From contig CAYIZI010000002.1 in assembly GCA_964368135.1 (NCBI GenBank), positions 16,241-80,240 on the forward strand: a DNA stretch of 64,000 bases, in the 5' to 3' direction. The DNA comes from an uncultured Candidatus Saccharibacteria bacterium. GTDB taxonomy: Bacteria; Patescibacteriota; Minisyncoccia; 2-02-FULL-40-12. The notes beneath the pieces were generated by a model. That model did not search any database. It saw only the letters and a program-made list of their open reading frames with translations, and was not told where the DNA came from. A program made the position numbers and the translations under genes. Positions 4,497 to 37,413 of the stretch are shown here, piece by piece. Numbering within the stretch: the first letter of the stretch is position 1; the number at the start of each line of letters is the position of its first letter.

Positions 4497-4566
4497 AACT
4501 CACCTCCCGGGTAAGCAAAGCTAATCCACCAAGAAACGAACCAAAGTTGCTGGACTTAGTGTAGGG

Positions 4567-14353: not shown

Positions 14354-15382
14354 TTAAGCCAAGTCCCGTTTCTTTTTCCTAAGTTTTTCTCTTATCGGGA
14401 TTTCGGAATCAAGAACTGTTTTCACGGCATTGCCAAAAGCTAATTCCATCTCTCTAACTTCTCTGATAAGCTCGGCGAGCTCGTGCGGCTCAAGACTGGC
14501 GGCCTGGTCAGTGCCAAACATATTTTTATCCAAAGTAATATGCCGTTCGATTAAATGAGCGCCGATGGTAGCTGCAGCCAACGATGGCGCAATTCCTTTT
14601 TCATGGCCGCTATATCCTACCGGCATTCCGGGAAATTCCCGCCTTAACTTATCAATCATTTTCAGATTAAGCTCTTCTTCTTTGGCCGGGTAAGTTGAAA
14701 CAGTATGTAAAAGAATCAAATTATCAGTGCCTAAAATTCTGACTGCATGTTTAATTTCATCCATTGTGCTCATGCCGGTAGATAAAACAACTGGCCGACC
14801 CTTTTCTTTTATTTTTTCTAATAACTCATTATGGGTAAGAGAGGCGGAAGCAACTTTATAGCAAGGGAGGTTAAACCCTTCCAGAAAATCAACGCTCTCT
14901 AAATCCCAAGGCGAAGCAAACCAAAAGATTCCTTTAGTATTGCAGTAGCGGTCAATCTCTTTGTACTCGTCTTTTGTAAATTCCAAAGCCCACTTCAAAT
15001 CGCCGTTGGTTGAATCTTTAAAATCAGATTTTTTAAGACGCTCAACCGACTCTTTCGGTAGTACTCCCCTTTTGACGGCGTTTTCCAAAACCGCTCTGTC
15101 AACCTGCCGCGGCTTAGCCAATTCCTCGGCTGAATAAACCGCCGGTACCGTTCGTTTTTGAAACTTTACGGCCTGGGCTCCGGCTTCAACCGCCGCATCA
15201 ATCAGTTTCTTGGCAATCTCCAAACTGCCGTTATGATTTATCCCGATTTCAGCCACAAAAAAACAAGGCTGTTTTTTACCTACAGCAATATTGCCAATAT
15301 GGATATCGTGAGTATCTAAAGATGAATTACCAACTATAGTCCTGGCAAATCTTGCTATTGGAGAAAAAAATGCTTTAAACAT
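14354..15382 (-). CDS. N-acylneuraminate-9-phosphate/nonulosonic acid synthase family (NeuB/PseI/LegI-like)
   Basis: NeuB TIM-barrel motif FFVAEIGINHNGSLEIAKKLIDAAVEAGAQAVKFQ; length 342 aa, consistent with a C-terminal SAF domain. Confidence 0.75.
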   Translation of the reverse strand: MFKAFFSPIARFARTIVGNSSLDTHDIHIGNIAVGKKQPCFFVAEIGINHNGSLEIAKKLIDAAVEAGAQAVKFQKRTVPAVYSAEELAKPRQVDRAVLENAVKRGVLPKESVERLKKSDFKDSTNGDLKWALEFTKDEYKEIDRYCNTKGIFWFASPWDLESVDFLEGFNLPCYKVASASLTHNELLEKIKEKGRPVVLSTGMSTMDEIKHAVRILGTDNLILLHTVSTYPAKEEELNLKMIDKLRREFPGMPVGYSGHEKGIAPSLAAATIGAHLIERHITLDKNMFGTDQAASLEPHELAELIREVREMELAFGNAVKTVLDSEIPIREKLRKKKRDLA

Positions 15383-15457
15383 TGTAATGTAATTTTATCA
15401 TAGAATATTAATAATAACTGGTCAATTTTAGAAATTTGAGGTAGTATATTTAAGCTT

Positions 15458-16407: not shown

Positions 16408-16869
16408 TCAGGTTTTGACCTCGATCCCCTCCAGATACTCCAGCCGGACTTTGCCTTCCGGCAGAGCCACCTTCACCACCATCAGATGACAAAGGTCAGG
16501 AGTAAAGTGCTGATGGGCCTGGCCGGCCGGGATGTGCAGCCAGTCACCCTCGTAAAGAACTACCTCCTTGCCGCCTTCGATGCTGTTAGCAAGGAAAGTC
16601 AGACCGTCTTTTGTCCAGGGATCCACGAGTCGGCCGCCCAGAACAAAACGAACGCTCCCCTCCATACAGAAGAACACGTCGTCCTCGTGGAGATGGACTT
16701 CGGCCGGACGATGCTCCACGTGGAGATTCCGGAGGAATCGAACCGGAAATCCTTCCTCGTACAGCTTGGCCGACCCTTCCAGTACATGACTCCCCTTTTT
16801 CTCGGGTTCCCCGTAGAATTCCCTTACCACACGTCCAAACACATGTCTGACTGGCCTCAACTCGCTCAT
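16408..16869 (-). CDS. cupin domain protein
   Basis: 153 aa. Cupin beta-barrel motifs (HxH...E, LHIPAGQAHQ). GC-rich. Confidence 0.6.
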   Translation of the reverse strand: MSELRPVRHVFGRVVREFYGEPEKKGSHVLEGSAKLYEEGFPVRFLRNLHVEHRPAEVHLHEDDVFFCMEGSVRFVLGGRLVDPWTKDGLTFLANSIEGGKEVVLYEGDWLHIPAGQAHQHFTPDLCHLMVVKVALPEGKVRLEYLEGIEVKT

Positions 16870-16885
16870 TGCGTCCTCCTTGGAC

Positions 16886-17962
16886 CTAAACCGCCCTGAA
16901 TACGAAATAGAAAGCCTGGGCCTGTGTCAGTAGATTCTTTTCTTCTTCAATCAAAGTATCTACCAGTTCAGCTTCGGCCTCCTCAATGATCTTCATCTTC
17001 TGTACCAACGGTAAATCTACCGTCGCCAAGTTGATCGGAACGATAATCGGGTAGAAGTCAACCGACCTTACAAGGGACGGCTCTTCAACCACAACTGTCC
17101 TCTCAAGATCAAACCCGGCTTGGGTGGCTAAATCCGGCATCTCGCTGACCCTGAACATTTTCGCATCCTTTGGAGCATCTCTTTTGATTGAGTGCCTCTC
17201 CATAAGAATCCTGTTTAGAATCGAATTCAGCTTGACGAAAACAGGATTATTATTAGAGCCGGATTTATTGAAATGCTCTTCCCGAGAAGGGTCAGTTTCT
17301 AAGGCAGTCACCTGGCGCGGTTCCATCACAACCAGAACGCCGCCAGTCTGTAGAAGGCTCCTTGCCTTCGACAGCACCTTCACGATGCAGCCGTCGGTTT
17401 CGGGCTTAAGCCCATCTTCTTCAAGCTTCTTCTTGAGTTGGTTGATTGGCCAATGAAGGACATTGTTGGCCACAGCCACATCAAAAAGAGTATCTGAAGA
17501 AAAAGACATCAGGGGTGAAGTCATTATCCGCAGCTTCAACGACTCCCAGAAGCTGTTCTGGCGAAACCCCCGCCGGAAAAATTTTAGGTATTCGACGGTT
17601 CTTTCAAACCGACGGCCCAAAACTTCTTTGGCCCCTTTCTGAACCAGCCATTCCTCCACGTCACCGCCTTCCAGAAGCAAAAACCCCATCATTTCGGTCA
17701 TTGCCCTGGAATTATCAATGGCGGTTATTGAGGCCGGGCAAAACCCAGAAATGGCAAAAGTAGAGGTACCATAACCGCAGCCAATATCCAGAACATCCTT
17801 GCCTCTTAAGCCGCCACTGGCAGTTTCGGCCAGAAGGGCTGAATTCTGGGATTGACGCAGATATGAACCACGAACCCAGCCTTCGACAGAATAAATGGCT
17901 GGGAACAAACCCTCAAAAAGATCGCCCTTGGGGTCGTAAGCATGGATAGGTCCTTCACTCAT
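16886..17962 (-). CDS. class I SAM-dependent methyltransferase
   Basis: Motif I VLDIGCGYGTSTF. GC-rich, in a possible operon with the cupin gene. Confidence 0.65.
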   Translation of the reverse strand: MSEGPIHAYDPKGDLFEGLFPAIYSVEGWVRGSYLRQSQNSALLAETASGGLRGKDVLDIGCGYGTSTFAISGFCPASITAIDNSRAMTEMMGFLLLEGGDVEEWLVQKGAKEVLGRRFERTVEYLKFFRRGFRQNSFWESLKLRIMTSPLMSFSSDTLFDVAVANNVLHWPINQLKKKLEEDGLKPETDGCIVKVLSKARSLLQTGGVLVVMEPRQVTALETDPSREEHFNKSGSNNNPVFVKLNSILNRILMERHSIKRDAPKDAKMFRVSEMPDLATQAGFDLERTVVVEEPSLVRSVDFYPIIVPINLATVDLPLVQKMKIIEEAEAELVDTLIEEEKNLLTQAQAFYFVFRAV

Positions 17963-18032
17963 TTCTCACCTTCCTTGAAGTTGATTTTCAATTTTTAAAC
18001 AGGATTTAACGGACGATACCCTGGACTTCAAG

Positions 18033-18061
18033 ACTATAAAAGAATGAAGTACTTTTGTCAA
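18033..18061 (-). promoter_or_regulatory. near-consensus sigma-70 promoter (TTGACA-17nt-TATAGT) for the methyltransferase-cupin operon
   Basis: Minus strand reads TTGACAaaagtacttcattctttTATAGT. It lies about 70 nt upstream of the MTase ATG, which is preceded by GGAAGGTGAG. Confidence 0.55.
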
Positions 18062-18879
18062 GATTTTGGATTGGCAAAAACATTATCAGTAAATTTAACC
18101 AACACTTTATAAAATCCTGGCGGGTTATCAATAAATGGGAAATGATGACTTTGGGGTATGGCCTTAACTAAACATCTGCTCTTTTTTAATTTCTCTATAA
18201 CCGATAGCCAGTTTTTATTTTCTGCACCATAAATAAAGATTTTGGGCAAATTTATTTTTAAAAAATTTTTAAGAAGATGTCCGTTCTTACAAATTTTGGC
18301 GTGAGAAACGCTAAAATCAAAATATGATTTTATTGAAACACCGTCCAATTGTCTGCCATATCTTTTAAATCCTCGGTTTTTTGATTTTTTCAAATCTTCA
18401 ACCATATCCGGGAAAAGTCTATTTCTAAAAATATCGAGGCCGGCTTTTTTAATCTTTCTTGACCACCGGGCATTTTGAGAAACCAAACTTCCTTCAACAT
18501 TCACGAAGCCGGCAACTTTTTTCGGATATTTTTCGGCATATAAAAGAGTAGCTATGCCGCCGATGCTGTGGCCGACTAAAATGAATTTTTTAAATGAAAA
18601 CTTTTTAGCGGTGTGCTCAATGATTTTTACTAAATCATTTATTCCTAAACTTTTTCTGGATGGATAAAGAGAATTACCAACTCCCGGCCAATCAAAAGCA
18701 AAAATTTCGTAATCTTTAAGTCCTTTAACTTTTACAGCATCGATAAAATCTTCTTTTGAACAGCCTAAACCATGAATAAAAATTATTGTCCCTCTTTTAC
18801 CGGGTCGATAAAAATACCTGATTTTAATTTTCGAATTTTTTAATTTAATCGGAAATTTTGAAAGATTAATATTTTTCAT
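18058..18879 (-). CDS. alpha/beta hydrolase fold protein
   Basis: HGLG oxyanion motif and GHSIGG nucleophile elbow (GxSxG). AT-rich, like the host genome. Confidence 0.7.
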   Translation of the reverse strand: MKNINLSKFPIKLKNSKIKIRYFYRPGKRGTIIFIHGLGCSKEDFIDAVKVKGLKDYEIFAFDWPGVGNSLYPSRKSLGINDLVKIIEHTAKKFSFKKFILVGHSIGGIATLLYAEKYPKKVAGFVNVEGSLVSQNARWSRKIKKAGLDIFRNRLFPDMVEDLKKSKNRGFKRYGRQLDGVSIKSYFDFSVSHAKICKNGHLLKNFLKINLPKIFIYGAENKNWLSVIEKLKKSRCLVKAIPQSHHFPFIDNPPGFYKVLVKFTDNVFANPKS

Positions 18880-18906
18880 AAAAATTTATTTAAATAAGGC
18901 GACAGT

Positions 18907-18942
18907 GAGCCTCCAAAGATTTTATAAAATCTTTGGAGGCTC
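18907..18942. repeat. perfect 36-bp palindrome (hairpin stem about 16 bp): terminator/attenuator or operator
   Basis: GAGCCTCCAAAGATTTTA|TAAAATCTTTGGAGGCTC, lying between the P-loop gene end (18952) and the hydrolase start (18879). Confidence 0.6.
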
Positions 18943-18951
18943 AAGTAAAAC

Positions 18952-19686
18952 TCAAGAACTTCGGACTTGTTCGAGCATCGCCACTGCCTCGGCAACGCGT
19001 CTTTTCAGTTCTTCTTCGCTGATCGGCATCTCGCCTCTCAGAAAAGAAAAAACTTCCTCGCGCTGATGAACCAGTGATTCTTGTGATTCGTCTGAAGTGT
19101 TAAGGTACAAAGGAATGTAACCAGCCGGCGGAATCTCAATCTGTCGGGCGCCACGAAGGAAACCGTCGAAGTCGAACACGCTGGCGTTGGTGATATTGCC
19201 GACGGTTTCCAATTCCCGCTGACGATAAGCAATCCGCCGCCTGACCGCCTCCAAATCGCAGTAGAAGTAGATGCATCTGAAATGTACTGTGATCGGCAAT
19301 TCCGGAATCGGTTTCCCGTCCCTTTCTGCTTCCTCACGCTCAATGGTCTGAAGGTACCAGTTGGCGCTTTCAAGCATCTCAACGAACGGCACCTGGTGAG
19401 CTTTACGAGTCAGCATCACCATTTCCAGAAACACGGCTTGAGGCCTCTCTACTATCAGCTTAGTCTTCACCTCGAATCGAGTCGCCTCGTTCTTGAAGAC
19501 GTGCTCGATCTTAACGATGTGAACGTCACTTCTCGTCGGCCAGAAGCGCTGACGGACATCGTCCATAGACACAAAAACAGCATCCTTGTACTCGGGTAAA
19601 CTCATTACCCAATTCCGGAAGAATGACTTGCCGCTGAAAACCAGACCGGAGAAAACACTGACCAAAATCACCTGATTATTACCCAT
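18952..19686 (-). CDS. P-loop NTPase/kinase-like hypothetical protein
   Basis: Walker A motif GLVFSGKS near the N-terminus. GC is intermediate to high. No further family recognised. Confidence 0.4.
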   Translation of the reverse strand: MGNNQVILVSVFSGLVFSGKSFFRNWVMSLPEYKDAVFVSMDDVRQRFWPTRSDVHIVKIEHVFKNEATRFEVKTKLIVERPQAVFLEMVMLTRKAHQVPFVEMLESANWYLQTIEREEAERDGKPIPELPITVHFRCIYFYCDLEAVRRRIAYRQRELETVGNITNASVFDFDGFLRGARQIEIPPAGYIPLYLNTSDESQESLVHQREEVFSFLRGEMPISEEELKRRVAEAVAMLEQVRSS

Positions 19687-19713
19687 ACCATCCTCCTTTT
19701 TAATGAACCGTTG

Positions 19714-19743
19714 TTGACTTTTTCAAGCTAATACCTTATATAA
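19714..19743 (+). promoter_or_regulatory. putative sigma-70 promoter (TTGACT-17nt-TATATAAT) for the KdsC-like phosphatase gene
   Basis: TTGACT at 19714-19719 and TATATAAT at 19736-19743; the ATG is at 19757. Confidence 0.45.
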
Positions 19744-19756
19744 TTAAATCAATAAT

Positions 19757-20281: not shown

Positions 20282-20282
20282 T

Positions 20283-21167
20283 TTAGCCAAACAAACTCGT
20301 AATCACTATTCCAGCAAGCATTATACTGGTGGCAAGTAATCTCTCTTTTATATTTTTTTCCTGTAAAAGCCGACCGCTTAAAATCACGGCCCAAAATGAC
20401 CAGAGCCGCTTAACACTGGCGGCATAGGCGGCCAAAGTGTAGTTAAGTGCTTGGGCAGTCAGAAAAAAACCGGCAATATTGACCACAACCATTAAAAAAA
20501 TAATGCGCCGATTTACTTTTAAATGTTTAAAAATCGAAAAATCTTTTTTCTGAACAGTATAAATAGCCAAACTGACTAACCCGACAATAATCAGATAAAT
20601 TGCAGAAAAAAACAAAGCTGATGAAGTTACTACCGCTTTTTTATCAAAAGGAAAAGAAAAAGCAAAAAATAAGGCACCTAATATCCCTAAAAGTATGCCT
20701 TTCTGTTCAAAAATATTGGCTAAACTAATTTTTTTGCCCTCCGGATTAACTAAAAACCAAAGGCCGGCTATAGTAGTTAAAACGCCAATCATGCCCCAGA
20801 AAGATGCTTTCTCGCCCAAAATAAAAAAACCGGTTATTAAAACAAGCGGCGGGGTCAACAGTCTGGTTGGAGAAATTATAGAAGCATCATCCTGACTAAA
20901 GGCTTTGTAGTAAATCCAGTGGCCGAATAAGCCCAAGACAGAAGTCATAAAAAAAGCCAACCAAAAGCCTTGTTTAATCTCCGGGAAATCGAAAAAGAAA
21001 ATAAACAAAATAGAAATAAAAATACCGGAAAGCAAAAAATTAAAAGCAAGAAGGAGTCTCTCGTTTATCTTGCCGTCTCTCAGGGCATACCTGATTACTA
21101 CATCCAAAAGCCCGGCGAAAAAAGTGCCGGGAATCATAAAGAGTAGAAATAATTTAATGTTCTCCAT
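20283..21167 (-). CDS. EamA/DMT-superfamily transporter
   Basis: About 10 TM helices in two 5-TM halves; 294 aa. Confidence 0.6.
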   Translation of the reverse strand: MENIKLFLLFMIPGTFFAGLLDVVIRYALRDGKINERLLLAFNFLLSGIFISILFIFFFDFPEIKQGFWLAFFMTSVLGLFGHWIYYKAFSQDDASIISPTRLLTPPLVLITGFFILGEKASFWGMIGVLTTIAGLWFLVNPEGKKISLANIFEQKGILLGILGALFFAFSFPFDKKAVVTSSALFFSAIYLIIVGLVSLAIYTVQKKDFSIFKHLKVNRRIIFLMVVVNIAGFFLTAQALNYTLAAYAASVKRLWSFWAVILSGRLLQEKNIKERLLATSIMLAGIVITSLFG

Positions 21168-21730
21168 TATTTCTTTTTAGAACTGCTTTTCGCCTGAATA
21201 ATCAAATCACAAACTTCTCTTACTGCTCCGTCACCGCCTTTGGCTTTAGTCACGTAATCAGCCACTTTTTTTGCTTCTTTGGCGCCATCACCCACGCAGA
21301 CCGAAAGGCCGACAAATTTCATTATTTCAATGTCGCCGGTGCTGTCGCCGACAAAACAAATATCCTTTAAGCTTGCCTTGGGATGATTTTCTTTTAAATA
21401 CTCTTTGAGACCAGCAACTTTGTCTTTATTCTGGACTAAAGGAACGCCGAGCTTCCAGGCCCGGGCCTGGACATAACCGCTTCTCTGGGTAGTTAAAATA
21501 AAAACCGAAACCCCGACATTTTCTTTCCGCACTAAATCTATCCCCTGACCGTCTTTATGAGAATATCTGGCCGATTCAAAAACATAAACAAAATCTCGAC
21601 CGGTATGCTGGCTCGCCGCTTCTTTGGTCATAATAACACCGGTATCAAGATATAAAGGCGTCAGCACCCCGTCATTATCAAGAGCCAGGACTTTTACTTT
21701 CTTGAATTTGTCTAAAAGTTTTTTAGTCAT
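21167..21730 (-). CDS. HAD-IIIA phosphatase, KdsC family (second copy)
   Basis: LDNDGVLT motif I and GDSTGDIEIM motif IV; 187 aa. Confidence 0.65.
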   Translation of the reverse strand: MTKKLLDKFKKVKVLALDNDGVLTPLYLDTGVIMTKEAASQHTGRDFVYVFESARYSHKDGQGIDLVRKENVGVSVFILTTQRSGYVQARAWKLGVPLVQNKDKVAGLKEYLKENHPKASLKDICFVGDSTGDIEIMKFVGLSVCVGDGAKEAKKVADYVTKAKGGDGAVREVCDLIIQAKSSSKKK

Positions 21731-21850
21731 ATTAGAGTCATATTAGATTTAAATAACAATAATTCTTTGAATCGTCAATTGTTGTAATTTTTCAAAAAAT
21801 GATAGATAATATAATCCTGAACTTTTCGCACCTTACCAAGGAGGTTAGAC

Positions 21851-23620
21851 ATGGCGAAGCTAAACGTAATCCAGCCCCATATCCACCCTTCAGAGGTGGT
21901 AAGGGGCATAACGGCAAGAGATCTTGAGGGTCTCAACGTTGTTTTCATCAATATGCCGCTTCGGGAAACGGCGCTACCAAACACCACACCCGAGGGTCCG
22001 CTATTAATGGCGACAAACCTGATTCGGAACTATGGGGTTAGTGCTTCAGTAATTGACCTCAACGCTTACCGGATTAAAGACGAGCTGGCTCAAAAACGCG
22101 GACTCCCGCGAGGCCGCCACCTGACCGAAGAAGAGGCCTTTGGTAAAATCCAACGCCATTTCCTCAAATTTGGCGAACCAGACCTTGTTTGCCTTTCAGG
22201 AATGATCACCACTCTGAAGTGGCAAAAAGCAGTGGCGGGAATGGTCCGCCGGCTGGTACCTAACACTATGCTCGTTTCTGGCGGGGGCCTGGCTACTGAA
22301 TTAAAAGTGGGACTGTTTAACTACACCCCTGAACTCGATGGAGTGGCCCACTCCGAAGGAGACGATGTCATCGTCAAAATCTGCTACGACGCGGCGGTTA
22401 TTCGGCGCCACGGCCGGCAACATGCTCTCAACTCGGGCAAGCTCGAACCCTATTTACTGCAGGACGGCTCCGGCCGTCTGATGTACGAAGGCGATCGGCC
22501 CGATGATTTGGACCGATTCCCATGGGTTGACCTTGAGCTTTTGCGCGAAGATGTTGACGGGGTCAAAATCCTTGAGCAATATCTTCAAGCCGAAGCTTGG
22601 GGACTTAGCGCAAACAACAGCTCGGCGGCACCGTTTGTAACCGCGCCGAAAACCACTTCGGTTTCTTCCCGCGGCTGTCCCTATGGCTGCAAATACTGCT
22701 ATCGGGGCGCCCAAGGAGAACGCAAGTGGCACGTGAGGTCGGCCCGCCATCTGGTTGAGGAAATGAAAGAACACATGGCAAAGTACGGCATAGCTTTCAA
22801 GAGCTGGCCGGACGACAACTTTGCGGTGACATTCAAAAGGATTAAGGAACTCCGGGATATCATTGTCGCAGAAGGCATCAAGATTCCCTGGGGAACCCAC
22901 ACTCGCCTCGACGAAGCCGGTGGCTTTGTTCCTAACTCACGTCAACCCCATCACGAGAGAAACTTCTTTACCGACTATATCTTTGAGGATCCGCTCCGGA
23001 TCAAGCTAATGGCTGAAGCCAACTGTAAGTACGTCGGCTTTGGACCAGAAAGCGCTCACCCAGACACCCTTGAAGAACTCGGCAAAGGAGGCTTCACTCT
23101 CAAGGCAGGTTTGATCCCAGTTGGAGTCAACGGCCATACCTACTACTTCCCCAAAGCCATGATCTATGGAACCAAGCACACCATGGAAGCGGGGATTCAC
23201 GCCAACATGACCTGGATCAAGTTTAATCCGGGAGAAACGCTGGAACGGCTCAAGCAGACAGTTGCCTTCATCAAATGGCAGATTGATTACTACGCAACCT
23301 TCGGAATACCGGAAGAAGCGGTGAATAAAAACATGTTCACTCTTACCTGGTATCCTGGGACGGAACTAATCAATCACCCTAAGGTGAGGTTAGAACTTTC
23401 GCGCGTCTTCGGTCTGAATTTCCAAAGGATCAACGGCAAGTGGGACCCTGTCTGCGATGAGGCGTTCTACCGGTATTGCCTGGAACTAGACGACGCCACC
23501 AAGCTCCTTCACGGCCCGGACGGCGAACCGCTGAACTTCAGCGAAATGCCAAACGACTTGGCCCTACAAATCAACGAGTATGTCAGCTCCGGCCAAACTC
23601 TTCGTATCCTGGACATATAA
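21851..23620 (+). CDS. B12-binding domain radical SAM protein (class B radical SAM-like)
   Basis: N-terminal cobalamin-binding-like Rossmann segment, then the radical SAM CxxxCxxC motif (CPYGCKYC). 589 aa. About 52-55% GC in about 33% GC surroundings. Strong AAGGAGG Shine-Dalgarno. Confidence 0.7.
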   Translation: MAKLNVIQPHIHPSEVVRGITARDLEGLNVVFINMPLRETALPNTTPEGPLLMATNLIRNYGVSASVIDLNAYRIKDELAQKRGLPRGRHLTEEEAFGKIQRHFLKFGEPDLVCLSGMITTLKWQKAVAGMVRRLVPNTMLVSGGGLATELKVGLFNYTPELDGVAHSEGDDVIVKICYDAAVIRRHGRQHALNSGKLEPYLLQDGSGRLMYEGDRPDDLDRFPWVDLELLREDVDGVKILEQYLQAEAWGLSANNSSAAPFVTAPKTTSVSSRGCPYGCKYCYRGAQGERKWHVRSARHLVEEMKEHMAKYGIAFKSWPDDNFAVTFKRIKELRDIIVAEGIKIPWGTHTRLDEAGGFVPNSRQPHHERNFFTDYIFEDPLRIKLMAEANCKYVGFGPESAHPDTLEELGKGGFTLKAGLIPVGVNGHTYYFPKAMIYGTKHTMEAGIHANMTWIKFNPGETLERLKQTVAFIKWQIDYYATFGIPEEAVNKNMFTLTWYPGTELINHPKVRLELSRVFGLNFQRINGKWDPVCDEAFYRYCLELDDATKLLHGPDGEPLNFSEMPNDLALQINEYVSSGQTLRILDI

Positions 23621-23644: not shown

Positions 23645-23692
23645 GAAAAAAGCCCGACAGGTTCATCTTGTCGGGCTTCGCTCTTTATTTTT
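23645..23692. terminator. bidirectional rho-independent terminator between the convergent radical SAM and cytidylyltransferase genes
   Basis: AAAAAA-GCCCGACAGG-ttcatc-TTGTCGGGC-TTcgcTCTTTATTTTT: a hairpin with an A-tract upstream and a T-tract downstream. Confidence 0.75.
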
Positions 23693-24398
23693 CGCCCCCT
23701 CTCCTCTTCAAAATCTTGCCAATCAGCCAAAACTGGTATTCGCTGTCAACTTGGAGAGAGTCTTCCTCGGTCATCTGGACAATCGCCATTTTCCCGCCCC
23801 AGCGATGGCCGATTTTATGAAATAAATCTGTCTTAGTTATATAAAAAGCTCCGTTCTCATGATAAACTTTTGGTAAATCCTGCCTGACCACTCTTTTCAT
23901 CACCGGAACTTCCGGTTCAAAAGCAACCTCTCTGCCTGACTCATCAACCTTCGGCCGCCATTTCCACTCATAGGTTTCAGGCAAAAAAGCAGTGATGCAA
24001 GAATCAAAACCTTGATTCTTTACCCTATTCACGCACTCCTTTATAATTTCTGATTTTAAAAGCGGCGAAGTCGGCTGAATGCAGGAAACGAAATCAGGCA
24101 CGTAATTTTCTTTTTCTCTTAAATAATCCAAAGCATGTTTAATTACCGGCTCAAGAGTAATCTTATCGCCAGCCAGTTCTTTTGGCCGGTCAACCACCTC
24201 GGCCCCGAATTTCTTAGCCACTCCCGCAATCTCGGCATCGTCAGTTGAAACAATCACCCTATCCACTACACCAGAATTCAAAACCGCTTCAATAGTATGA
24301 GCAACTAAGGGCTTCTCGTTTAACAATCTTATATTTTTTCGGGGCACTCCTTTGGAACCGCCCCGCGCCGGAATTATAGTAATAATTTTTGGCTTCAT
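23685..24398 (-). CDS. acylneuraminate/nonulosonate cytidylyltransferase family (CMP-NeuAc/CMP-Kdo synthetase-like)
   Basis: N-terminal IIPARGGSKGVPRKN motif; 237 aa. Confidence 0.75.
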   Translation of the reverse strand: MKPKIITIIPARGGSKGVPRKNIRLLNEKPLVAHTIEAVLNSGVVDRVIVSTDDAEIAGVAKKFGAEVVDRPKELAGDKITLEPVIKHALDYLREKENYVPDFVSCIQPTSPLLKSEIIKECVNRVKNQGFDSCITAFLPETYEWKWRPKVDESGREVAFEPEVPVMKRVVRQDLPKVYHENGAFYITKTDLFHKIGHRWGGKMAIVQMTEEDSLQVDSEYQFWLIGKILKRRGGEK

Positions 24399-24403
24399 AA
24401 TTT

Positions 24404-25021
24404 TTATACTTTGTGGCTAAGGCGGAAAAATAAGTAGTTAGAGATTATATGGACCAATAAAAGATGCAGCGACTCTACCGGCCCATAGTGGCCCTTTGGC
24501 GAAGTTGCGGTAATTACATGAGCGCAGCAGTTTTTTGCCTCACCGCCGTCAAATCCAAGAACCCCGACAGTGTTTCCGCCTTTAGAATTAACATATTCTA
24601 TAGCTCTAATCAAGTTTGGCGAATCTCCGCTTCCTGAAAAAACAATAAGAACATCGCCGGGTTTATAAAGATTCCTCAACTGCCCGACAAAAACTTTCTC
24701 ATATCCCTCGTCATTGCCTAAAGCGCTTAGGTAAGGAACGCTGTCGCTTAAACTTAGGGTTCTAAACGGCTTGTCTTCCCCGGCCCCGGCGCAAAGAGCC
24801 AAGTCTTCGACAAAATGAGAAGCATTAGCCGCGCTTCCGCCGTTTCCCACTACAAAAATCATTGAACCGCGCTCCCTTGCTTCTAAAAGAGTGTCAACTA
24901 ACTTTTCAACTGAGCCAATGTCAATCGATTTTGTTAAATCAAAAAAATGTTCGGTATATTTTTTGAAAAACTGATTGAACGATCCGTTTGATTCTTTAAA
25001 AAATTGTTCTATCTGTTTCAT
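24404..25021 (-). CDS. SIS-domain sugar-phosphate isomerase (GmhA-like sedoheptulose-7-phosphate isomerase)
   Basis: VVGNGGSAANASHFVEDL and SGSGDSPN motifs; 205 aa, single SIS domain. Confidence 0.65.
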   Translation of the reverse strand: MKQIEQFFKESNGSFNQFFKKYTEHFFDLTKSIDIGSVEKLVDTLLEARERGSMIFVVGNGGSAANASHFVEDLALCAGAGEDKPFRTLSLSDSVPYLSALGNDEGYEKVFVGQLRNLYKPGDVLIVFSGSGDSPNLIRAIEYVNSKGGNTVGVLGFDGGEAKNCCAHVITATSPKGHYGPVESLHLLLVHIISNYLFFRLSHKV

Positions 25022-25024: not shown

Positions 25025-26023
25025 TTATTGCTTCATCAAAACCACTCCTTTAATTAATTTGCCTGATTCTAAATCATTTAATCCTTCGTTTATTTGGTTG
25101 AAAGTATATTCTTTGGTAATAAGTTTAGCTAAAGGCAAAACACCGCCAAGATGCTCTTCAACAAATCCCGGCATATCTTTATCCAAAAAAGTCCCGCCGC
25201 CCCAGCTCCCTAAAATCTTTTTTCCTTTTATTAAATCAAAAGGGTCAATAGAGATTTTGGCAGCCGGAGGAAGATTGCCGGCCAAAACCACGATTCCATT
25301 GTCTTTGGCTGATTCAAAAGCTTTTTCCATTGCCTCTTTTGAACCAGAACATTCTATCACAAAATCAAATTTTCTTAAATTAATTTCAGCCGGATTAATC
25401 GCTTCTACACCCAATGCTTCCTTGGCCCATTTAAGTTTCCAGTCAACTATATCAATAGCTGTAGTTCTTGCGCCTAAGCTTTGGGTTTTAATCAAGGCAC
25501 TTGCGCCAACGCCGCCTATACCAAAAACTGCCGCCGTATCATCTTTTTTGATATTCAAATTTTTCGCAATCCCGCCGCCGGTCAAAACGGCACAACCAAG
25601 CAAAGCGGCGACAGAGGGGTTTACTTTTTTATCAATTGACACCACCCTATTTTCGGAAATAACCGCATATTCAAGAAAAGTCGCGGCTGGCCCGGCGTTA
25701 ACCAGACCTTTTTCGCTTTTATATTTTGGCGGTTCTGCCTCAATCCCCTCTCCTTTTATCCAACTAACAACCACATAATCATCATTTTTTACTTTCTTAA
25801 CACCCTCACCAATATCCAAAACTATTCCCGAAGCTTCATGGCCCATAAGATGGGGAATGTATTCTTTTCCTTTTCTGCCTTTTATTTCGTTTAACTGGCT
25901 GTGGCAAAGCCCGCTGGCTAAAATTTTAACCAAAACCTGGCCAGACTTAAGGGCTGGCACTTCCAGTTCTTCAATATAAAGAGGCCCGCCTATATTTCTT
26001 AAAACTGCAGCTTTGGTTAACAT
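25025..26023 (-). CDS. zinc-binding MDR-family alcohol/sugar dehydrogenase
   Basis: GLCHSQ...GHEASG catalytic zinc motif and a GxGxxG Rossmann segment (GIGGVGASA). Confidence 0.65.
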   Translation of the reverse strand: MLTKAAVLRNIGGPLYIEELEVPALKSGQVLVKILASGLCHSQLNEIKGRKGKEYIPHLMGHEASGIVLDIGEGVKKVKNDDYVVVSWIKGEGIEAEPPKYKSEKGLVNAGPAATFLEYAVISENRVVSIDKKVNPSVAALLGCAVLTGGGIAKNLNIKKDDTAAVFGIGGVGASALIKTQSLGARTTAIDIVDWKLKWAKEALGVEAINPAEINLRKFDFVIECSGSKEAMEKAFESAKDNGIVVLAGNLPPAAKISIDPFDLIKGKKILGSWGGGTFLDKDMPGFVEEHLGGVLPLAKLITKEYTFNQINEGLNDLESGKLIKGVVLMKQ

Positions 26024-26027
26024 TTAT

Positions 26028-26684
26028 TTAAGGAATAAACCAATAGTAATCACCGGTATAGCCGACTTCTTTAAAAAGTTTCTTCCAGCCGTCGACGCTT
26101 AAAATAGTTTGAGCCGTCAAATTCCACATCATCATTCTTTTATTTTCTTCTTTATTTCGGTAGGCATCTACGGTAATATAGGCGTGTTTTTTCTTGACTC
26201 GCTCTATTTCTTTAATCGCTTTTTTGCAGTCTTTCAAAGGCAAGTTGTGAACCGTATTGATAGAAATAACCAAGTCAAAAGAATTATCGTCAAACTGGCT
26301 TAAATCCTTGGCATTGCCGACAGAAAGAATAGGTTTAATTTTGGGCATAGAATTTTCAACGGCGTATTTAGAAATGTCTATGCCCCTTATGGTAATAAAA
26401 GGAAGCCAGTATAAAAAGTCGTTAAGCATAAAACCTTTGGCCGAACCAACATCCAAAACACTGCTTTCATTTGTTAAGCCGTAGTAATTTATGAAATCCC
26501 TGACTACTGACGCCCAGCGGCCGTCATATCTATAACCTCCGTAGCCGCGCGCACGAGATCCATCAAAAAACTCTTTTCCGAACTGTCTGGCAATTTTAAT
26601 ATCTTCTTTGGTCTTTTCGGTACCTCTTGCCTCAACGTTTCTTTTCGGTTTCGGATATTTAGTTAAAAGATCTAATTCAGGCAT
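26028..26684 (-). CDS. class I SAM-dependent methyltransferase
   Basis: VLDVGSAKGFMLND motif I. Confidence 0.55.
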   Translation of the reverse strand: MPELDLLTKYPKPKRNVEARGTEKTKEDIKIARQFGKEFFDGSRARGYGGYRYDGRWASVVRDFINYYGLTNESSVLDVGSAKGFMLNDFLYWLPFITIRGIDISKYAVENSMPKIKPILSVGNAKDLSQFDDNSFDLVISINTVHNLPLKDCKKAIKEIERVKKKHAYITVDAYRNKEENKRMMMWNLTAQTILSVDGWKKLFKEVGYTGDYYWFIP

Positions 26685-26686
26685 AA

Positions 26687-27190
26687 TTAAACTGTATAAA
26701 CTTTTCCTTCCTTTATTGATTTTATAATATCCCTGCTGGCAAATTTTTTATCCTTGGTATACCTAATTAAACAACCGGCTTTAATTGCATCTCTTTTCTC
26801 ATTTAAAAAACTTCCTGATTTTGAATTTATATAGTCAGGCCCTCTGATGTAATATTTTGGTTTTATTAAATTGATAATCTTTGATACATTACTCTGTTTA
26901 TTATGTCTATTAAATATGGCAAAATCAACGGAACTTAACTGACTGACCATATACGCTCTTAAATCTTCATTAAAAATTGGCCGACCCGGGCCTTTTTGTT
27001 TTCTTACTGATTTATCATCAGCCACAGCTACGACTAAAACATCGCAAAGCTTTTTGGCTGATTCAAAATGCATAACATGGCCTGGGTGCAAAAGATCGTA
27101 GTTACCATTGCAAAACCCGATTCTTTTACCTTGTTTTCTGTAATTTTCTATTATCTTGGCTAATTTACTGATTGAAACTACTTTTCCCAT
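26687..27190 (-). CDS. cytidylyltransferase-like nucleotidyltransferase (HldE domain II / heptose-1-phosphate adenylyltransferase-like)
   Basis: GFCNGNYDLLHPGH: the (H/T)xGH nucleotidyltransferase motif. The start is chosen at the internal ATG (MGKVV...) to avoid a 56-nt overlap with the next gene; the track ORF runs to 27259. Confidence 0.6.
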   Translation of the reverse strand: MGKVVSISKLAKIIENYRKQGKRIGFCNGNYDLLHPGHVMHFESAKKLCDVLVVAVADDKSVRKQKGPGRPIFNEDLRAYMVSQLSSVDFAIFNRHNKQSNVSKIINLIKPKYYIRGPDYINSKSGSFLNEKRDAIKAGCLIRYTKDKKFASRDIIKSIKEGKVYTV

Positions 27191-27203
27191 ATTAAAATTT
27201 AAA

Positions 27204-28208
27204 TCATTTTTTATGGATATATTTAATGGGATGTTTCTGAATTTCGCTCCAAGAATCATTTATCCATTTTATTACTTCATCAACGCCTTTTTCTAATTTT
27301 ACTTTTGGCTTCCAATTGAGCCGCTTGGCAGTATTAACAAAATTTAACTTATAAGTGGCATCTTGGGCTGGTCGGCCAGCGCTTATTTCAACTGAATCAT
27401 TAAAATTTACTCCCATCTTCCGACAAACGAGCGATACTAAATCTTTTATCATTATATTTTTCTCGCTGGAAAAGTGATAAACTTCTCCGGGCTGGCCTTT
27501 TGAAATAATTTTATGGATGCCTCTAATAACGTCCTCAATATGAATAAAGCTCCGGCTAATCAATCCTCCTTGATGTAAAGGAATTTTCTGGCCCTTTTTT
27601 ATTAAAACAATTGATTTCGGGATTATTTTAAAAAGCTGCTGGTGCGGTCCATAAACATTAGCCGACCGGACAAAAGAAACCGGAAAATTAAATTTCTTAA
27701 AAAGGGTAATTAAAAACAAATCGCCAGCCCCTTTTGAAGCGGCGTAAGGAGTCGAGGGATTAAAGTAGTTAGGATTTTCGTCTCCTTTGTACGAACCATA
27801 TACTTCAGGAGTTGAAATTTGAATGTATTTTTTCAAATAACTTCTGTCTTTCAAACGATTGGTTAAATTCACGATGGCCAGAGTGTTTGTTCGGAACCAA
27901 TCTTCAGACCTTTGCCAGCTTACTTCCACAATGCTTTGGGCAGCAAAGTTTATTATAACCTCTGGTTTCTCTTTATCAAAAATTTTTATGATCTTATCTA
28001 AGTCTTTATTCAAATCAAGCTGATAAAAACTGAATCTTGAAGCTTGTGGCCTTTGCTTTTTGTAAAGATACGGTAAAAAAACCGCTGACTTCTCTGGCGA
28101 ACGGCTTAAACCAAGAACTTTAAAATCTGTGTTCTTTAGAAAATAGTCAACGCAGTGGCTCCCAGAAAATGAATTACTCCCAATAATAGCAATTTTCTTT
28201 ACTCTCAT
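27204..28208 (-). CDS. NAD-dependent epimerase/dehydratase (extended SDR) family
   Basis: GxxGxxG-like N-terminus (IIGSNSFSGSH) and the YxxxK catalytic motif. Confidence 0.6.
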   Translation of the reverse strand: MRVKKIAIIGSNSFSGSHCVDYFLKNTDFKVLGLSRSPEKSAVFLPYLYKKQRPQASRFSFYQLDLNKDLDKIIKIFDKEKPEVIINFAAQSIVEVSWQRSEDWFRTNTLAIVNLTNRLKDRSYLKKYIQISTPEVYGSYKGDENPNYFNPSTPYAASKGAGDLFLITLFKKFNFPVSFVRSANVYGPHQQLFKIIPKSIVLIKKGQKIPLHQGGLISRSFIHIEDVIRGIHKIISKGQPGEVYHFSSEKNIMIKDLVSLVCRKMGVNFNDSVEISAGRPAQDATYKLNFVNTAKRLNWKPKVKLEKGVDEVIKWINDSWSEIQKHPIKYIHKK

Positions 28209-28220
28209 AAATTTTATAAG

Positions 28221-29306
28221 TTAAAAAGGGCCTTTAAAATCTTTATCTGGCACATCAAGCGGTGTGATTCTATTTTTTTCTTCCTCTTTAATCAAAACTT
28301 CTAACTTTTTCCTGTTTCCGCCGACCATCTTAACAACTTTTCTGGCAATATCTATATACCTTGGATAATAATACTTTGCTAAGGCCGGCGTTGAGGGAGT
28401 CGGCAAATCAGGAGAAGTGATTCTTTGAGGATTGGTTAAAAGTTTAACCTTTTGATTTTCAGAAACAGCCGCAATAATCTCTGCGGCGGCGCCAAAACTT
28501 TTATAGCCAAGGTCAGCAACCAGTAACCTTTTTGTTTTAGATACAGAATCAAAAATAGTTTGTTCGTCTAATGGTTTTAGAGTTCTTACATCTATAATTT
28601 CCGGATTTATTCCCATTTTCTTTAATAAATTTGCGGCTTTAATGGATTCAATCGTCATATGGGAAGTTGAAACGATAGTGATCGCCTCCCCTTTTTTAAC
28701 GATGCTGGCTTTGCCAATAGGAACTTTATAATAACCGCTTGGAACTTGCCCAAAAGTATCATGAAGCCAGCGATGGTCAATATAAATAACTGGGTTATTG
28801 TCTTCAATCGCCGAAACCATTAAACCTTTGGCATCAGCCGGGGTTGACGGCATCACTACTTTCAAACCCGGAATATGGGCATAAACTGCCTGGAGGTTTT
28901 GAGAATGTTGAGCCCCCTGTCCCCAACCCATACCAATAGTCACCTTAATGACCAAAGGAACTGACTGCCTGCCGCCAAACATATAATGCCACTTAGCCGC
29001 ATTATTAATTACTTGTTCTAACGCAAGTAAGCTAAAATCAACTCTTTGATGAGTCAAAACGGGCCGCATCCCGCTAATCGCCGCTCCAATACAGACGCCG
29101 GTTATGCCATTTTCAGAAACCGGCATATCCATTACTCTATTTCCCCCATATTTTTTTTGAAGCCCCACTGTAGCACCAAAAATCCCTTTCGGATCAGGAA
29201 CACCTAAACCTATCACAAAAACCGATCTATCTTTTTTTAAAGATAGATCTAATGCCTCATTAATGGCTTGAACATAGGTTATATTATGCGCCGTAGAGCC
29301 CTTCAT
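28221..29306 (-). CDS. TPP-dependent 2-oxoacid dehydrogenase E1 beta subunit / transketolase C-terminal-like
   Basis: Transketolase pyrimidine-binding and C-terminal domains (MDMPVSENGITGVCIGAAISGMRP). The start is moved to the internal ATG (MKGST...). Confidence 0.6.
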   Translation of the reverse strand: MKGSTAHNITYVQAINEALDLSLKKDRSVFVIGLGVPDPKGIFGATVGLQKKYGGNRVMDMPVSENGITGVCIGAAISGMRPVLTHQRVDFSLLALEQVINNAAKWHYMFGGRQSVPLVIKVTIGMGWGQGAQHSQNLQAVYAHIPGLKVVMPSTPADAKGLMVSAIEDNNPVIYIDHRWLHDTFGQVPSGYYKVPIGKASIVKKGEAITIVSTSHMTIESIKAANLLKKMGINPEIIDVRTLKPLDEQTIFDSVSKTKRLLVADLGYKSFGAAAEIIAAVSENQKVKLLTNPQRITSPDLPTPSTPALAKYYYPRYIDIARKVVKMVGGNRKKLEVLIKEEEKNRITPLDVPDKDFKGPF

Positions 29307-30249
29307 ATAAATATTCCTTTGGTGGGAATTTGCTTTTTTTAGCAAAATCAAACGCCTCTTTTATCTTTTCTTCTACATCTTTTTTGATTTTATCCAACTC
29401 CTTTTGAGAAACTATCTTATTTTTAAGAAGGTGACCCTCAAAATGCCTAACCGGATCTTTTTTCTTCCATGCCTCCACTTCTTTCTTATCCCTATATCCT
29501 AAATGATCATCATAAAACGGACCGCAATGTTCACGCCACCGATAAGTTAAAAACTCCAAAAATACCGGGCCTTCCCCTTTTCTTATTTTCTTAACCGCCT
29601 CGGAAACAGTTTTATAAATATCTAAAACATTATTGCCGTCGTGCTGGGAAGCGGTTATGCCATGCCCTTCAACTAATTTATAAATGGGGCGATTTGGCTG
29701 TCTTTCTGATAAAGGGGTGTAAACCGAGAAAAAATTATTTTCGCAGACAAATAAAATCGGCAATTTTTTAAAAGCGGCGAAGTTTAAACTTTCATGAAAA
29801 ACTCCTTCTTCAGCCGTTCCATCGCCTATAAAAGCAACTGTAATTTTATTTTTACCTTTTAATTTATTAGCAAAAGCGGCGCCAACGGCGATGGGCATAC
29901 TATTTCCGACAATTGGAGTAGCTCCGCCAAAACCAGCCTCAAGATCAATTAAATGCTGGGAACCGCCTTTCCCTTTGGAACAACCTGTCTCTTTTCCGTA
30001 AATTTCGGCAATCATTTTATCTAAGTCTCCTCCTTTAGCCAGATAATGAGCATGGCAACGGTGAGTGCTGTAAACAATGTCATCTTTTTTTAAATTTTCG
30101 CAAACCCCGACTGCCACAGCTTCCTGACCAATAGATAAATGAACCGGACACCGCATTTCCTGATCCGGATATCTTTTAGCAATCTCTTCGTCAGTCAACC
30201 TGATTAAGAGAAGTTTTTGGTATAAAGATAAAAGTAGTTTTAAAGACAT
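29284..30249 (-). CDS. TPP-dependent dehydrogenase E1 alpha subunit-like
   Basis: E1-alpha signatures: CPVHLSIGQEAVAVG and the TPP-binding GDGTAEEG...N motif. Confidence 0.6.
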   Translation of the reverse strand: MSLKLLLSLYQKLLLIRLTDEEIAKRYPDQEMRCPVHLSIGQEAVAVGVCENLKKDDIVYSTHRCHAHYLAKGGDLDKMIAEIYGKETGCSKGKGGSQHLIDLEAGFGGATPIVGNSMPIAVGAAFANKLKGKNKITVAFIGDGTAEEGVFHESLNFAAFKKLPILFVCENNFFSVYTPLSERQPNRPIYKLVEGHGITASQHDGNNVLDIYKTVSEAVKKIRKGEGPVFLEFLTYRWREHCGPFYDDHLGYRDKKEVEAWKKKDPVRHFEGHLLKNKIVSQKELDKIKKDVEEKIKEAFDFAKKSKFPPKEYLYEGLYGA

Positions 30250-30253
30250 AAAA

Positions 30254-32056: not shown

Positions 32057-32244
32057 GGCATTTTATCTTTAAGAGTTATAAAAAGTGAACCGTCGCGATA
32101 GCTTGTCGGCATCTGTTCAAGTTTCTCAACTATTTGCCAATTAATTTTTTGGGCAAAAAGATTAACGCCAATTTTTTTAAAATGACTAAAAATATATTTG
32201 GCATTTGTCTCATTGCCCACCTCCGTAATAGCATCAGTAGTCAA
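32044..32244 (-). CDS. small hypothetical ORF (66 aa) filling the gap between the ALS-like and SDR genes
   Basis: ORF only. It overlaps both neighbours by a few nt. No motif; may be spurious. Confidence 0.2.
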   Translation of the reverse strand: MTTDAITEVGNETNAKYIFSHFKKIGVNLFAQKINWQIVEKLEQMPTSYRDGSLFITLKDKMPWHI

Positions 32245-33059: not shown

Positions 33060-33060
33060 T

Positions 33061-34053: not shown

Positions 34054-34056
34054 AAA

Positions 34057-35133: not shown

Positions 35134-35271
35134 AGTTAATACTTCCCCTTCTCTTTTAAACTAAACAATACTATAATAGATTATAGAAACTTTCTGTTTC
35201 TGTCCAGAACCTTTTTGGGTTCTGATGAACCTTCAAAAAACAGAATAAAGTGAAACATAAGGAGACCGACA

Positions 35272-37353: not shown

Positions 37354-37375
37354 CCACCTGAAAGGAGGTGTCATA

Positions 37376-37413
37376 AGAGGCGAAACCCACGCCTCTTCTT
37401 TTTTTATTTTTTT
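37376..37413 (+). terminator. rho-independent terminator of the second radical SAM gene
   Basis: AGAGGCG-aaaccca-CGCCTCT hairpin followed by TCTTTTTTTATTTTTTT. Confidence 0.7.

Follow-up and report, generated by a model that had tools for sequence, protein, structure and literature searches.

Class B radical S-adenosylmethionine (SAM) enzymes carry out C-H functionalisations that are among the hardest known, and few of them act on sugars. In the TokK group, characteristic motifs are A-x-S-x-Y-x-W, which is associated with the lower-axial position, GG, GE, a Trp one residue past the Cys loop (C-x3-C-x2-C-x-W) and D-A-N, which replaces GGE (PMC9204698), and the substrate of the class B enzyme Fom3 is cytidylylated by a partner cytidylyltransferase (PMC8158854). 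Here, we analyse two radical SAM genes, designated rSAM1 and rSAM2, within a stretch of 64,000 nucleotides ('the window'; assembly GCA_964368135.1, contig CAYIZI010000002.1, positions 16,241 to 80,240 of the forward strand) from an uncultured Candidatus Saccharibacteria bacterium of the candidate phyla radiation (CPR). We document the genes, their domains, motifs and folds, the conservation of synteny and modules, phylogenetic placement and composition, and propose that both are probably long-standing parts of two different sugar-nucleotide tailoring modules, being intact and independently transcribed. Most likely, activated sugars are the substrates of both enzymes, which would modify them at unactivated carbons through radical chemistry, and sugar tailoring by C-methylation is our best inference.

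Two kinds of described sugar pathways come closest to the surroundings of these genes. The first comprises the routes to CMP-activated ulosonic acids, that is Kdo, KDN and the sialic acids (KdsD-KdsA-KdsC-KdsB; NeuB-NeuA; the KDN-9-P route of Bacteroides); to our knowledge, no known ulosonic pathway has a radical SAM enzyme. The second comprises the nucleotide-heptose pathway, which involves GmhA, HldE and HldD, as well as the thiamine diphosphate (ThDP)-dependent formation of branched sugars by YerE-type enzymes or by E1 alpha/beta pairs, as in avilamycin. Our search of the literature for radical SAM or cobalamin enzymes connected with nonulosonic acids, including legionaminic and pseudaminic acid, or with Patescibacteria and the CPR retrieved no relevant paper and no link between such enzymes and ulosonic-acid or heptose-nucleotide pathways.

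Results

Two intact genes with their own expression signals

Both reading frames are intact and are equipped with signals of their own for the start of translation and the end of transcription:

21851..23620, + strand: rSAM1, ATG start, 589 aa; N-terminal B12-binding-like Rossmann domain, C276xxxC280xxC283 loop and C-terminal domain, in a predicted class B architecture
35272..37353, + strand: rSAM2, ATG start, 693 aa; TokK/CysS/KedN5-like radical SAM protein of the cobalamin type
21782..21810, + strand: promoter-like TTGTAA-17-GATAAT (consensus match only) in the 120-bp AT-rich spacer between rSAM1 and a divergent haloacid dehalogenase (HAD) gene
21838..21844, + strand: Shine-Dalgarno sequence AAGGAGG, 6 nt 5' of the rSAM1 start codon
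35259..35264, + strand: Shine-Dalgarno sequence AAGGAG, 7 nt 5' of the rSAM2 start codon
23650..23692, no strand assigned: 12-bp GC-rich hairpin with an A-run and a T-run at its two sides (hairpin plus T-tract 23650-23678), located where rSAM1 and the cytidylyltransferase gene converge; probably terminates transcription in both directions
37375..37413, + strand: intrinsic terminator of rSAM2, hairpin AAGAGGCG...CGCCTCTT followed by a T-tract (hairpin plus T-tract 37375-37397)

A first-pass annotation of the window had given the same frames, strand and cluster motifs, which are CPYGCKYC at residues 276-283 of rSAM1 and CPFRCTFC at residues 208-215 of rSAM2. Likewise, the strong Shine-Dalgarno sequences and the hairpin/T-tract terminators that it had described are present at both genes, and both run opposite to nearly all surrounding genes, as seven of the 56 large open reading frames (ORFs) of the window lie on the + strand. 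A scan for cobalamin, SAM and other riboswitches upstream of the genes and in the window gave no match at gathering thresholds and one chance-level match near rSAM2. The rSAM2 leader carries a perfect 7-bp inverted repeat (CAGAACC-TTTTTG-GGTTCTG, 35205-35224) 3' of a TATAAT element (35173-35178), which has no match in Rfam.

rSAM2 resembles TokK and CysS

The Pfam profile PF04055 (Radical_SAM) recognises rSAM2 with 36.1 bits (threshold 29.5), and PF02310 (B12-binding) matches residues 21-132, N-terminal to the radical SAM domain, with 40.6 bits (threshold 32.1). Comparison with solved structures revealed TokK (E 1.9e-46, residues 23-459, covering both domains) and CysS (E 1.3e-26). These results bear out, for rSAM2, the class B architecture assigned by the first-pass annotation. 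In the HMMER alignment with TokK, the segment G68-F-S-N-Y-S-W74 corresponds to the lower-axial motif A70-x-S-x-Y-x-W76, and it is followed by G97-G-G-P, E126-G-E and D255-A-N257, the latter being equivalent to D250-A-N252 of TokK. Four of the five TokK motifs are kept in this way, and all these positions are invariant or nearly so among 27 homologues. Thus, rSAM2 is linked to the TokK/ThnK/CysS group by its alignment to TokK over the B12 and radical SAM domains, its match to CysS and the lower-axial motif, GG, GE and D-A-N, whereas it differs by an identity of ~30% and by its last ~230 residues, which are unmatched. The context differs as well, since rSAM2 is located among nucleotide-heptose and glycan genes and not in a carbapenem, cystobactamid or enediyne cluster like TokK, ThnK, CysS and KedN5. 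By analogy to these enzymes, there is a good probability that rSAM2 is a cobalamin-dependent C-methylase. It adds a member to the TokK-like lineage, and the pathway context is new as well.

rSAM1 belongs to a conserved, uncurated family

The radical SAM domain of rSAM1 is likewise recognised by PF04055 (39.1 bits, threshold 29.5), and the cluster cysteines are invariant in the alignments of both families. A profile of the rSAM1 family matches the B12 domain of TokK (E 3e-10), with A-L-S116-G-x-I-T120, GGG and S-E-G-D falling onto A-L-S-C-Y-V-W, GG and G-E-G-E of TokK. An AlphaFold model of rSAM1, which was computed with 26 homologues (pLDDT 87.9, pTM 0.88), gave full-length Foldseek matches to TsrM (8e-16), AprD4 (8e-14), TokK (5e-13) and OxsB (3e-12), and also to CysS and MgmA. 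AprD4 matches equally well. From these fold matches and the profile match to TokK, we predict for rSAM1 a class B architecture that includes a homologous domain of the B12 type.

The family is strongly conserved, with a mean column identity of 61%, and is part of no curated family: rSAM1 scores 59 bits against the NCBIfam model for BchE (cut-off 481), 26 against AprD4 (cut-off 500) and 32 against KedN5 (cut-off 700). The equivalog models for BchE, AprD4, HpnJ, PhpK and TsrM, with 12-59 bits as compared to cut-offs of 480-600, are reached by neither rSAM protein. Both proteins would be akin to GenK/GenD1 and Fom3 as predicted class B radical SAM proteins with putative carbohydrate-like substrates. 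However, these enzymes gave no NCBIfam or PDB match above noise, and rSAM1 cassettes carry ulosonic-acid genes and not aminoglycoside or phosphonate genes. One homologue of 913 aa (P0113) contains a LAGLIDADG-type intein of ~343 residues, inserted exactly at the third cysteine of CxxxCxxC.

Pairwise alignment of rSAM1 with rSAM2, a comparison which the first-pass annotation had envisaged, yields 24% identity over 242 residues (E 3e-5). Therefore, the two are distant relatives and recent paralogy can be rejected.

rSAM1 is part of a CMP-ulosonic acid cassette

The genes around rSAM1, referred to as module A, and their flanking members are the following:

14354..15382, - strand: NeuB-family ulosonic acid synthase
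16408..19686, - strand: cupin, SAM methyltransferase, alpha/beta hydrolase and P-loop kinase-like ORF; together they form an accessory part of module A, which recurs in the related CPR locus L010
19757..20281, + strand: KdsC/YrbI-family HAD phosphatase (TIGR01670, 125 bits, cut-off 107)
20283..21167, - strand: EamA-family transporter
21167..21730, - strand: second KdsC-like HAD phosphatase, divergent from rSAM1; a layout kept in many CPR loci
23685..24398, - strand: PseF-like CMP-sugar cytidylyltransferase (CTP_transf_3), the commonest neighbour of rSAM1 homologues
24404..25021, - strand: GmhA-like SIS sugar-phosphate isomerase of the heptose pathway; part of module B (see below), sometimes found in module A

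The neighbourhoods of 82 rSAM1 loci were surveyed in two ways, that is by tblastn with the window proteins and, independently, by de novo clustering with Pfam annotation, considering neighbours within 6-10 kb. A CTP_transf_3 cytidylyltransferase was present at 50-56 of the 82 loci, NeuB at 43-50 and a KdsC-type HAD phosphatase at about 40; TagF-like Glyphos_transf and Wzx proteins each accompany 24 loci and AP_endonuc_2 proteins 21, and several SAM methyltransferases recur. In the usual layout, the cytidylyltransferase gene directly follows rSAM1 at its 3' side and the HAD phosphatase gene diverges at ~-0.2 kb. The closest relatives harbour a compact cassette, consisting of NeuB, a short-chain dehydrogenase/reductase (SDR), cytidylyltransferase and HAD genes beside rSAM1 (NeuB-SDR-cytidylyltransferase-HAD | rSAM1); such compact rSAM1 cassettes are found at L178, L179 and L013.

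Homologues with 53-86% identity are numerous, and all named ones among the top 120 belong to Patescibacteria, namely to Yanofsky-, Azam- and Parcubacteria. When species-representative genomes were scanned, the family turned up in many CPR classes, and the cassette is conserved across the CPR of the Paceibacteria type. The closest relative is from a metagenome-assembled genome (MAG) labelled 'Patescibacteria group bacterium H51-bin021_1', which makes a Paceibacteria-type CPR bacterium the very probable host of the window; the metagenome is one of groundwater. At 38-51% identity, the family extends to Roseibium, including cultured strains, and to Polyangiaceae, Planctomycetota, Acidobacteriota, Nitrospirae and Opitutia. 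The cassette of Roseibium sp. TrichSKD4 reads flavoprotein-NeuB-HAD-(TylF methyltransferase)-methyltransferase-rSAM1-cytidylyltransferase, and a Polyangiaceae genome has the rSAM1-cytidylyltransferase pair only. In TrichSKD4 (L046, 5257-14413), the flavoprotein resembles ferredoxin-NADP reductases and could have a role as reductant, and a gene that follows the cassette and is kept at nine Roseibium loci encodes a 627-aa tetratricopeptide repeat (TPR) protein, which may glycosylate proteins.

Module A thus shares with the Kdo, KDN and sialic acid pathways a NeuB-family synthase, KdsC/YrbI phosphatases, a PseF/KdsB-type cytidylyltransferase and an SIS isomerase, whereas none of its proteins reaches an equivalog cut-off. 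The cytidylylated substrate of Fom3 parallels the tight pairing of rSAM1 with the cytidylyltransferase, which we regard as a lead and not as a test. In the literature that we searched, the tie of this uncurated, highly conserved family to NeuB/KdsC/cytidylyltransferase cassettes is found nowhere.

The same data bear on the possibility that rSAM1 is no methyltransferase. It might catalyse an AprD4-like 1,2-diol dehydration coupled to reduction by an SDR, as in deoxygenation of the AprD4/AprD3 type, or an epimerisation or rearrangement as described for OxsB, HpnJ and BchE. AprD4 provides the highest target-normalised TM-score (0.67) and is similar over the full-length fold, and its radical SAM core shows a weak resemblance in sequence. 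SDR genes (adh_short) occur within 6 kb of rSAM1 homologues at 35 of the 82 loci, much as AprD3 is encoded near AprD4. Moreover, the best NCBIfam matches, cited above, are to non-methylases or are weak, and rSAM1 has an invariant Thr where TokK has the lower-axial Trp76. However, the N-terminal domain is very conserved, retains the A-x-S, GG and E-G-D skeleton and can be aligned to the proven cobalamin domain of TokK, which distinguishes rSAM1 from AprD4 along with the low score against the AprD4 model. In addition, the SDR partner is absent from the window, and most characterised class B enzymes are methylases (PMC9204698). We regard a non-methylating rSAM1 as a serious, if less likely, alternative.

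rSAM2 is part of a nucleotide-heptose/ThDP module

Adjacent to rSAM2, the window contains module B and, on the other side, an ORF that is convergent with it:

25025..35133, - strand: module B, in order zinc-dependent alcohol dehydrogenase, methyltransferase, HldE-C-like nucleotidyltransferase, epimerase/dehydratase, E1 beta, E1 alpha, acetolactate synthase (ALS)-like ThDP enzyme, SDR, epimerase and PfkB (HldE-N-like) kinase
37404..38600, - strand: 398-aa ORF without Pfam match, convergent with rSAM2 and kept beside it in the closest orthologues

In the CPR loci L095, L096 and L097, whose rSAM2 proteins are 76-80% identical to that of the window, the genes for E1 beta, E1 alpha, ThDP enzyme, SDR, epimerase and PfkB share one strand, rSAM2 is encoded on the opposite strand and the 398-aa ORF comes next; in L095 and L097, module B is collinear. 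The 398-aa ORF was considered as a universal partner of rSAM2 and rejected, as it is kept in the closest orthologues only and is absent from the locus of a 68% homologue. On a non-CPR contig with a GC content of 0.63 (L177), the rSAM2 homologue is located in the middle of one co-directional operon together with all ten window genes, including a fused HldE-type nucleotidyltransferase/kinase, GmhA, two epimerases, E1 alpha and beta, SDR and the ThDP enzyme. Identities between the window and L177 range from 34 to 63%, with 61.6% for rSAM2 and 62.6% for the AT-rich ThDP enzyme.

A 63% homologue from Binatia adjoins genes for a GHMP kinase, a nucleotidyltransferase, DegT and a second B12 radical SAM protein. 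This locus, L176, has two B12-binding radical SAM genes (456-1961 and 13768-15789) besides the rSAM2 homologue, and therefore several such enzymes are possible per glycan cluster. More distant homologues (30-50% identity) reside in clusters of the legionaminic/pseudaminic type with NeuB-cupin, NeuC-like epimerase, PglD, CBS-nucleotidyltransferase and cytidylyltransferase-TylF fusions. Judged from these contexts, rSAM2 would therefore be a sugar-nucleotide tailoring enzyme of the TokK-like methylase lineage.

Module B resembles the nucleotide-heptose and ThDP branched-sugar systems in its GmhA-like, PfkB kinase, cytidylyltransferase-like, epimerase/dehydratase, E1 alpha/beta, ALS-like ThDP and SDR proteins. 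It differs in the split HldE and in the B12 radical SAM enzyme, and the combination is not a described pathway. The embedding of both rSAM genes in glycan biosynthesis, as recognised by the first-pass annotation, is borne out by the NeuB/cytidylyltransferase and heptose modules around them.

The GC excess is gene-specific and old

The rSAM genes stand out by their base composition. The GC content is 0.526 for rSAM1 and 0.515 for rSAM2, with values at third codon positions (GC3) of 0.60 and 0.61, respectively, as compared to a window mean of 0.391 and a GC3 of ~0.35; at four-fold degenerate sites (GC4), both genes have 0.60-0.64 versus a window median of 0.45. The change coincides with the gene ends, GC rising from 0.36 to 0.51 at 21850 and falling from 0.52 to 0.28 at 37400 (150-bp windows). 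The anomaly reported by the first-pass annotation is therefore real as far as both genes exceed 50% GC, whereas the neighbours have 31-44% (the immediate ones 33-44%) and not uniformly the ~33% that it had given. Nor are the two alone in being GC-rich, as five more genes have 49-56% GC, namely ThyX (2903-3745), dCTP deaminase (DCD, 3945-4496), cupin (16408-16869), methyltransferase (16886-17962) and an ORF at 18952-19686. Strand as the source of high GC can be rejected, since the remaining five + strand genes have 35-39%.

Some of these genes form patterns of their own. At 16408-19686, the GC-rich genes for the cupin, the 358-aa methyltransferase and the P-loop kinase-like ORF (0.49-0.56) are interleaved with the AT-rich alpha/beta hydrolase gene (0.32), and the same interleaving recurs in L010 (4535-7838). 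At 2903-4968, a GC-rich block of ThyX (0.52), dCTP deaminase (0.55) and MsrB (0.45) is surrounded by AT-rich housekeeping genes (Mur ligase 0.38, SecF 0.39), which indicates that the GC mosaic extends beyond the glycan locus.

The first-pass annotation had regarded rSAM1 and rSAM2 as single-gene islands, each recently inserted from a GC-rich donor by horizontal gene transfer. The sharp GC steps, the orientation opposite to the neighbours with own Shine-Dalgarno sequence and terminator, and the presence of the nearest non-CPR rSAM2 homologues (62-63% identity) in GC-rich bacteria (0.63-0.71) are in line with such an origin. Comparison with related genomes argues for a different history. As described above, each of the two genes is a conserved part of a module of several genes. 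Orthologues with 76-86% identity occupy the same position and orientation and show the same GC excess in related CPR genomes, the rSAM genes being present at the same site in L010, L178 and L179 and in L095-L097, and the opposite-strand arrangement with an own promoter is itself conserved. In a neighbour-joining tree, rSAM1 of the window is placed deep in a CPR clade, with H51-bin021 as its sister, and sequences from outside the CPR group apart.

Divergence from L010 provides a second line of evidence. The AT-rich genes encode proteins with 89% (HAD174), 87% (EamA) and 91% (HAD187) identity to their counterparts, and the GC-rich genes rSAM1 and cupin proteins with 86% and 79%; the GC-rich and AT-rich genes of L010 correspond to those of the window. 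Identity at four-fold sites is 0.47-0.63 in both AT-rich and GC-rich genes, as compared to 0.27 expected at saturation. This equal divergence indicates that the genes have a common history and a different composition. Different transfer dates as the cause of the mosaic can thus be rejected for the time since the split from L010 and L095. Similarly, rSAM2 and the ThDP enzyme are equally near to L177 (62% and 63%).

Finally, silent changes show no drift towards AT. Polarised four-fold changes (GC>AT:AT>GC) amount to 7:7, 6:9 and 4:4 in three rSAM1 lineages and to 4:8 in rSAM2 of the window. Pooled, rSAM1 has 17:20, whereas a GC>AT share of 67% is expected under decay to window composition (p=0.007). 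The counts are small, and the tree is a neighbour-joining tree, which tempers these two results. Direct repeats flanking the rSAM genes are short and at chance level, tRNA genes are absent from the window, and integrase and transposase genes are absent among the neighbours. Recent single-gene import is hence largely refuted and appears very improbable.

The excess is also widespread. Among CPR loci, rSAM1 exceeds local GC in 51 of 51 cases, with a median of +0.079, and NeuB does so in 38 of 40 (+0.052), whereas the offset of rSAM1 is ~0 at non-CPR loci (n=26). As the silent changes are balanced and the excess is found in all 51 CPR loci, the composition is maintained and not decaying. Taken together, the GC excess of the rSAM genes is real, gene-specific, old and maintained, and bears no mark of recent import. 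Since the distribution is patchy, an old transfer of whole modules between phyla is likely.

Such a transfer might by itself account for the composition, if both modules were anciently acquired from GC-rich bacteria and the rSAM genes, being under stronger purifying selection, were slower to ameliorate. Module B indeed occurs in GC-rich non-CPR genomes and non-CPR rSAM1 homologues are GC-rich; the most conserved proteins, rSAM1 and NeuB, have the largest GC excess, and rSAM2 of L095 and L096 shows an excess of GC>AT changes (10:2 and 8:0, respectively). However, protein constraint does not protect four-fold sites, and these sites are nevertheless GC-rich; three rSAM1 lineages, like rSAM2 of the window, show balanced changes, and the excess persists in all 51 CPR loci over deep divergences with saturated silent sites. 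We consider slow amelioration rather unlikely.

It could also be argued from the compositional contrast alone that the GC-rich genes are assembly chimeras, joining reads of a GC-rich organism to those of a CPR bacterium. For rSAM2, chimerism is excluded: the window agrees with two independent Logan assemblies, SRR32696705 and ERR3858115, at 100% identity over stretches of 22 kb and 15 kb that span both junctions of this gene. The upstream junction of rSAM1 is collinear in L010, with 82% nucleotide identity over 18983-23616. Each protein is also encoded on several separate contigs, and the closest homologues are CPR proteins. The probability of an artefact is thus negligible.

Other features of the locus

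The flanks of the window encode FtsW, MraY, Ddl, AspRS, a Mur ligase, SecA/SecF and giant PG_binding_1 proteins. A sulfotransferase gene (15458-16345) and a gene for a fused ATP-sulfurylase/adenosine 5'-phosphosulfate kinase (46085-47779), which would serve the synthesis of 3'-phosphoadenosine 5'-phosphosulfate, suggest a sulfated surface glycan in a CPR bacterium. Three Wzy_C genes (O-antigen ligase/polymerase-like; 10397-12643, 54896-56953 and 56934-58211), two of which are fused to TPR repeats, are accompanied by at least eight glycosyltransferase genes, a glycan locus of a size that is unusual in a reduced genome.

Discussion

Our results suggest how two radical SAM enzymes could be integrated into sugar-nucleotide synthesis. 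In module A, the NeuB-type synthase would join phosphoenolpyruvate to a sugar phosphate, the KdsC-type phosphatases would take off the phosphate and the PseF-like cytidylyltransferase would form the CMP-sugar. rSAM1 would act at an unactivated carbon of the ulosonic acid or its CMP conjugate, with methylation as the default reaction. Module B, comprising GmhA, the split HldE, two SDR-type epimerase/dehydratases, E1 alpha/beta, the ALS-like ThDP enzyme and SDR, would make a branched or extended heptose. The target of rSAM2 would be an intermediate derived from the nucleotide-heptose, possibly at a two-carbon branch that the ThDP enzymes would add, and one round of methylation or, as in TokK and CysS, an iterative series may take place. 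By analogy to TokK, CysS, GenK and Fom3, the [4Fe-4S] cluster would cleave SAM, yielding a 5'-deoxyadenosyl radical that takes a hydrogen atom off a sugar carbon; methylcobalamin would give a methyl radical to this carbon, and a second SAM molecule would remethylate the cobalamin.

Several points weigh against this proposal. Cobalamin use, the substrates and the reaction outcome are features that we infer; this includes the sugar C-methylation suggested by the first-pass annotation, which is reasonable, especially for the TokK/CysS-like rSAM2. Among the ~84 kb of the contig that were covered, there is no gene for cobalamin uptake or synthesis. In rSAM1, PF02310 reaches 19.6 bits and is below the threshold of 32.1, so that the cobalamin-binding-like domain attributed to rSAM1 by the same annotation falls short in Pfam and stands by the profile match to TokK and the fold matches. 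AprD4, which is among the best structural matches of rSAM1, is a B12-independent dehydratase. The window lacks the SDR and AP_endonuc_2 partner that most CPR versions of module A have. rSAM2, in turn, lacks the Trp of TokK that comes after the Cys loop and carries C215-T216-E217 instead, E217 being invariant in the rSAM2 homologues, and its best NCBIfam match is KedN5 (NF033712) with 150.3 bits versus a cut-off of 700. Moreover, the 68% homologue of rSAM2 (L094, 7150-9234), from a CPR MAG of higher GC content that also has an rSAM1 homologue (L055), is flanked by pheT and gyrB and has no sugar genes around it.

In spite of its appearance, a GC-rich single-gene island on the opposite strand that resembles a textbook case of horizontal transfer, the comparative data reveal a stable, gene-specific composition. 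The association of the rSAM1 family with NeuB, KdsC-type and cytidylyltransferase genes is tight in dozens of CPR lineages. Tentatively, this family may provide an unrecognised radical step, probably dependent on cobalamin, towards a new CMP-ulosonic acid, that is a C-methylated or deoxygenated Kdo/KDN-like sugar, which would be widespread on the surfaces of Paceibacteria-type CPR bacteria and also present in Roseibium. As the rSAM1 cassette occurs in cultivable Roseibium, this chemistry is experimentally reachable. If the proposal is correct, the maintained GC excess of rSAM1 would reflect special selection or recombination. Furthermore, if cobalamin is used, supposedly minimal CPR bacteria, living as episymbionts with reduced genomes, would need scavenged cobamides to build the glycan of their cell surface, which would make them dependent on their hosts or neighbours.

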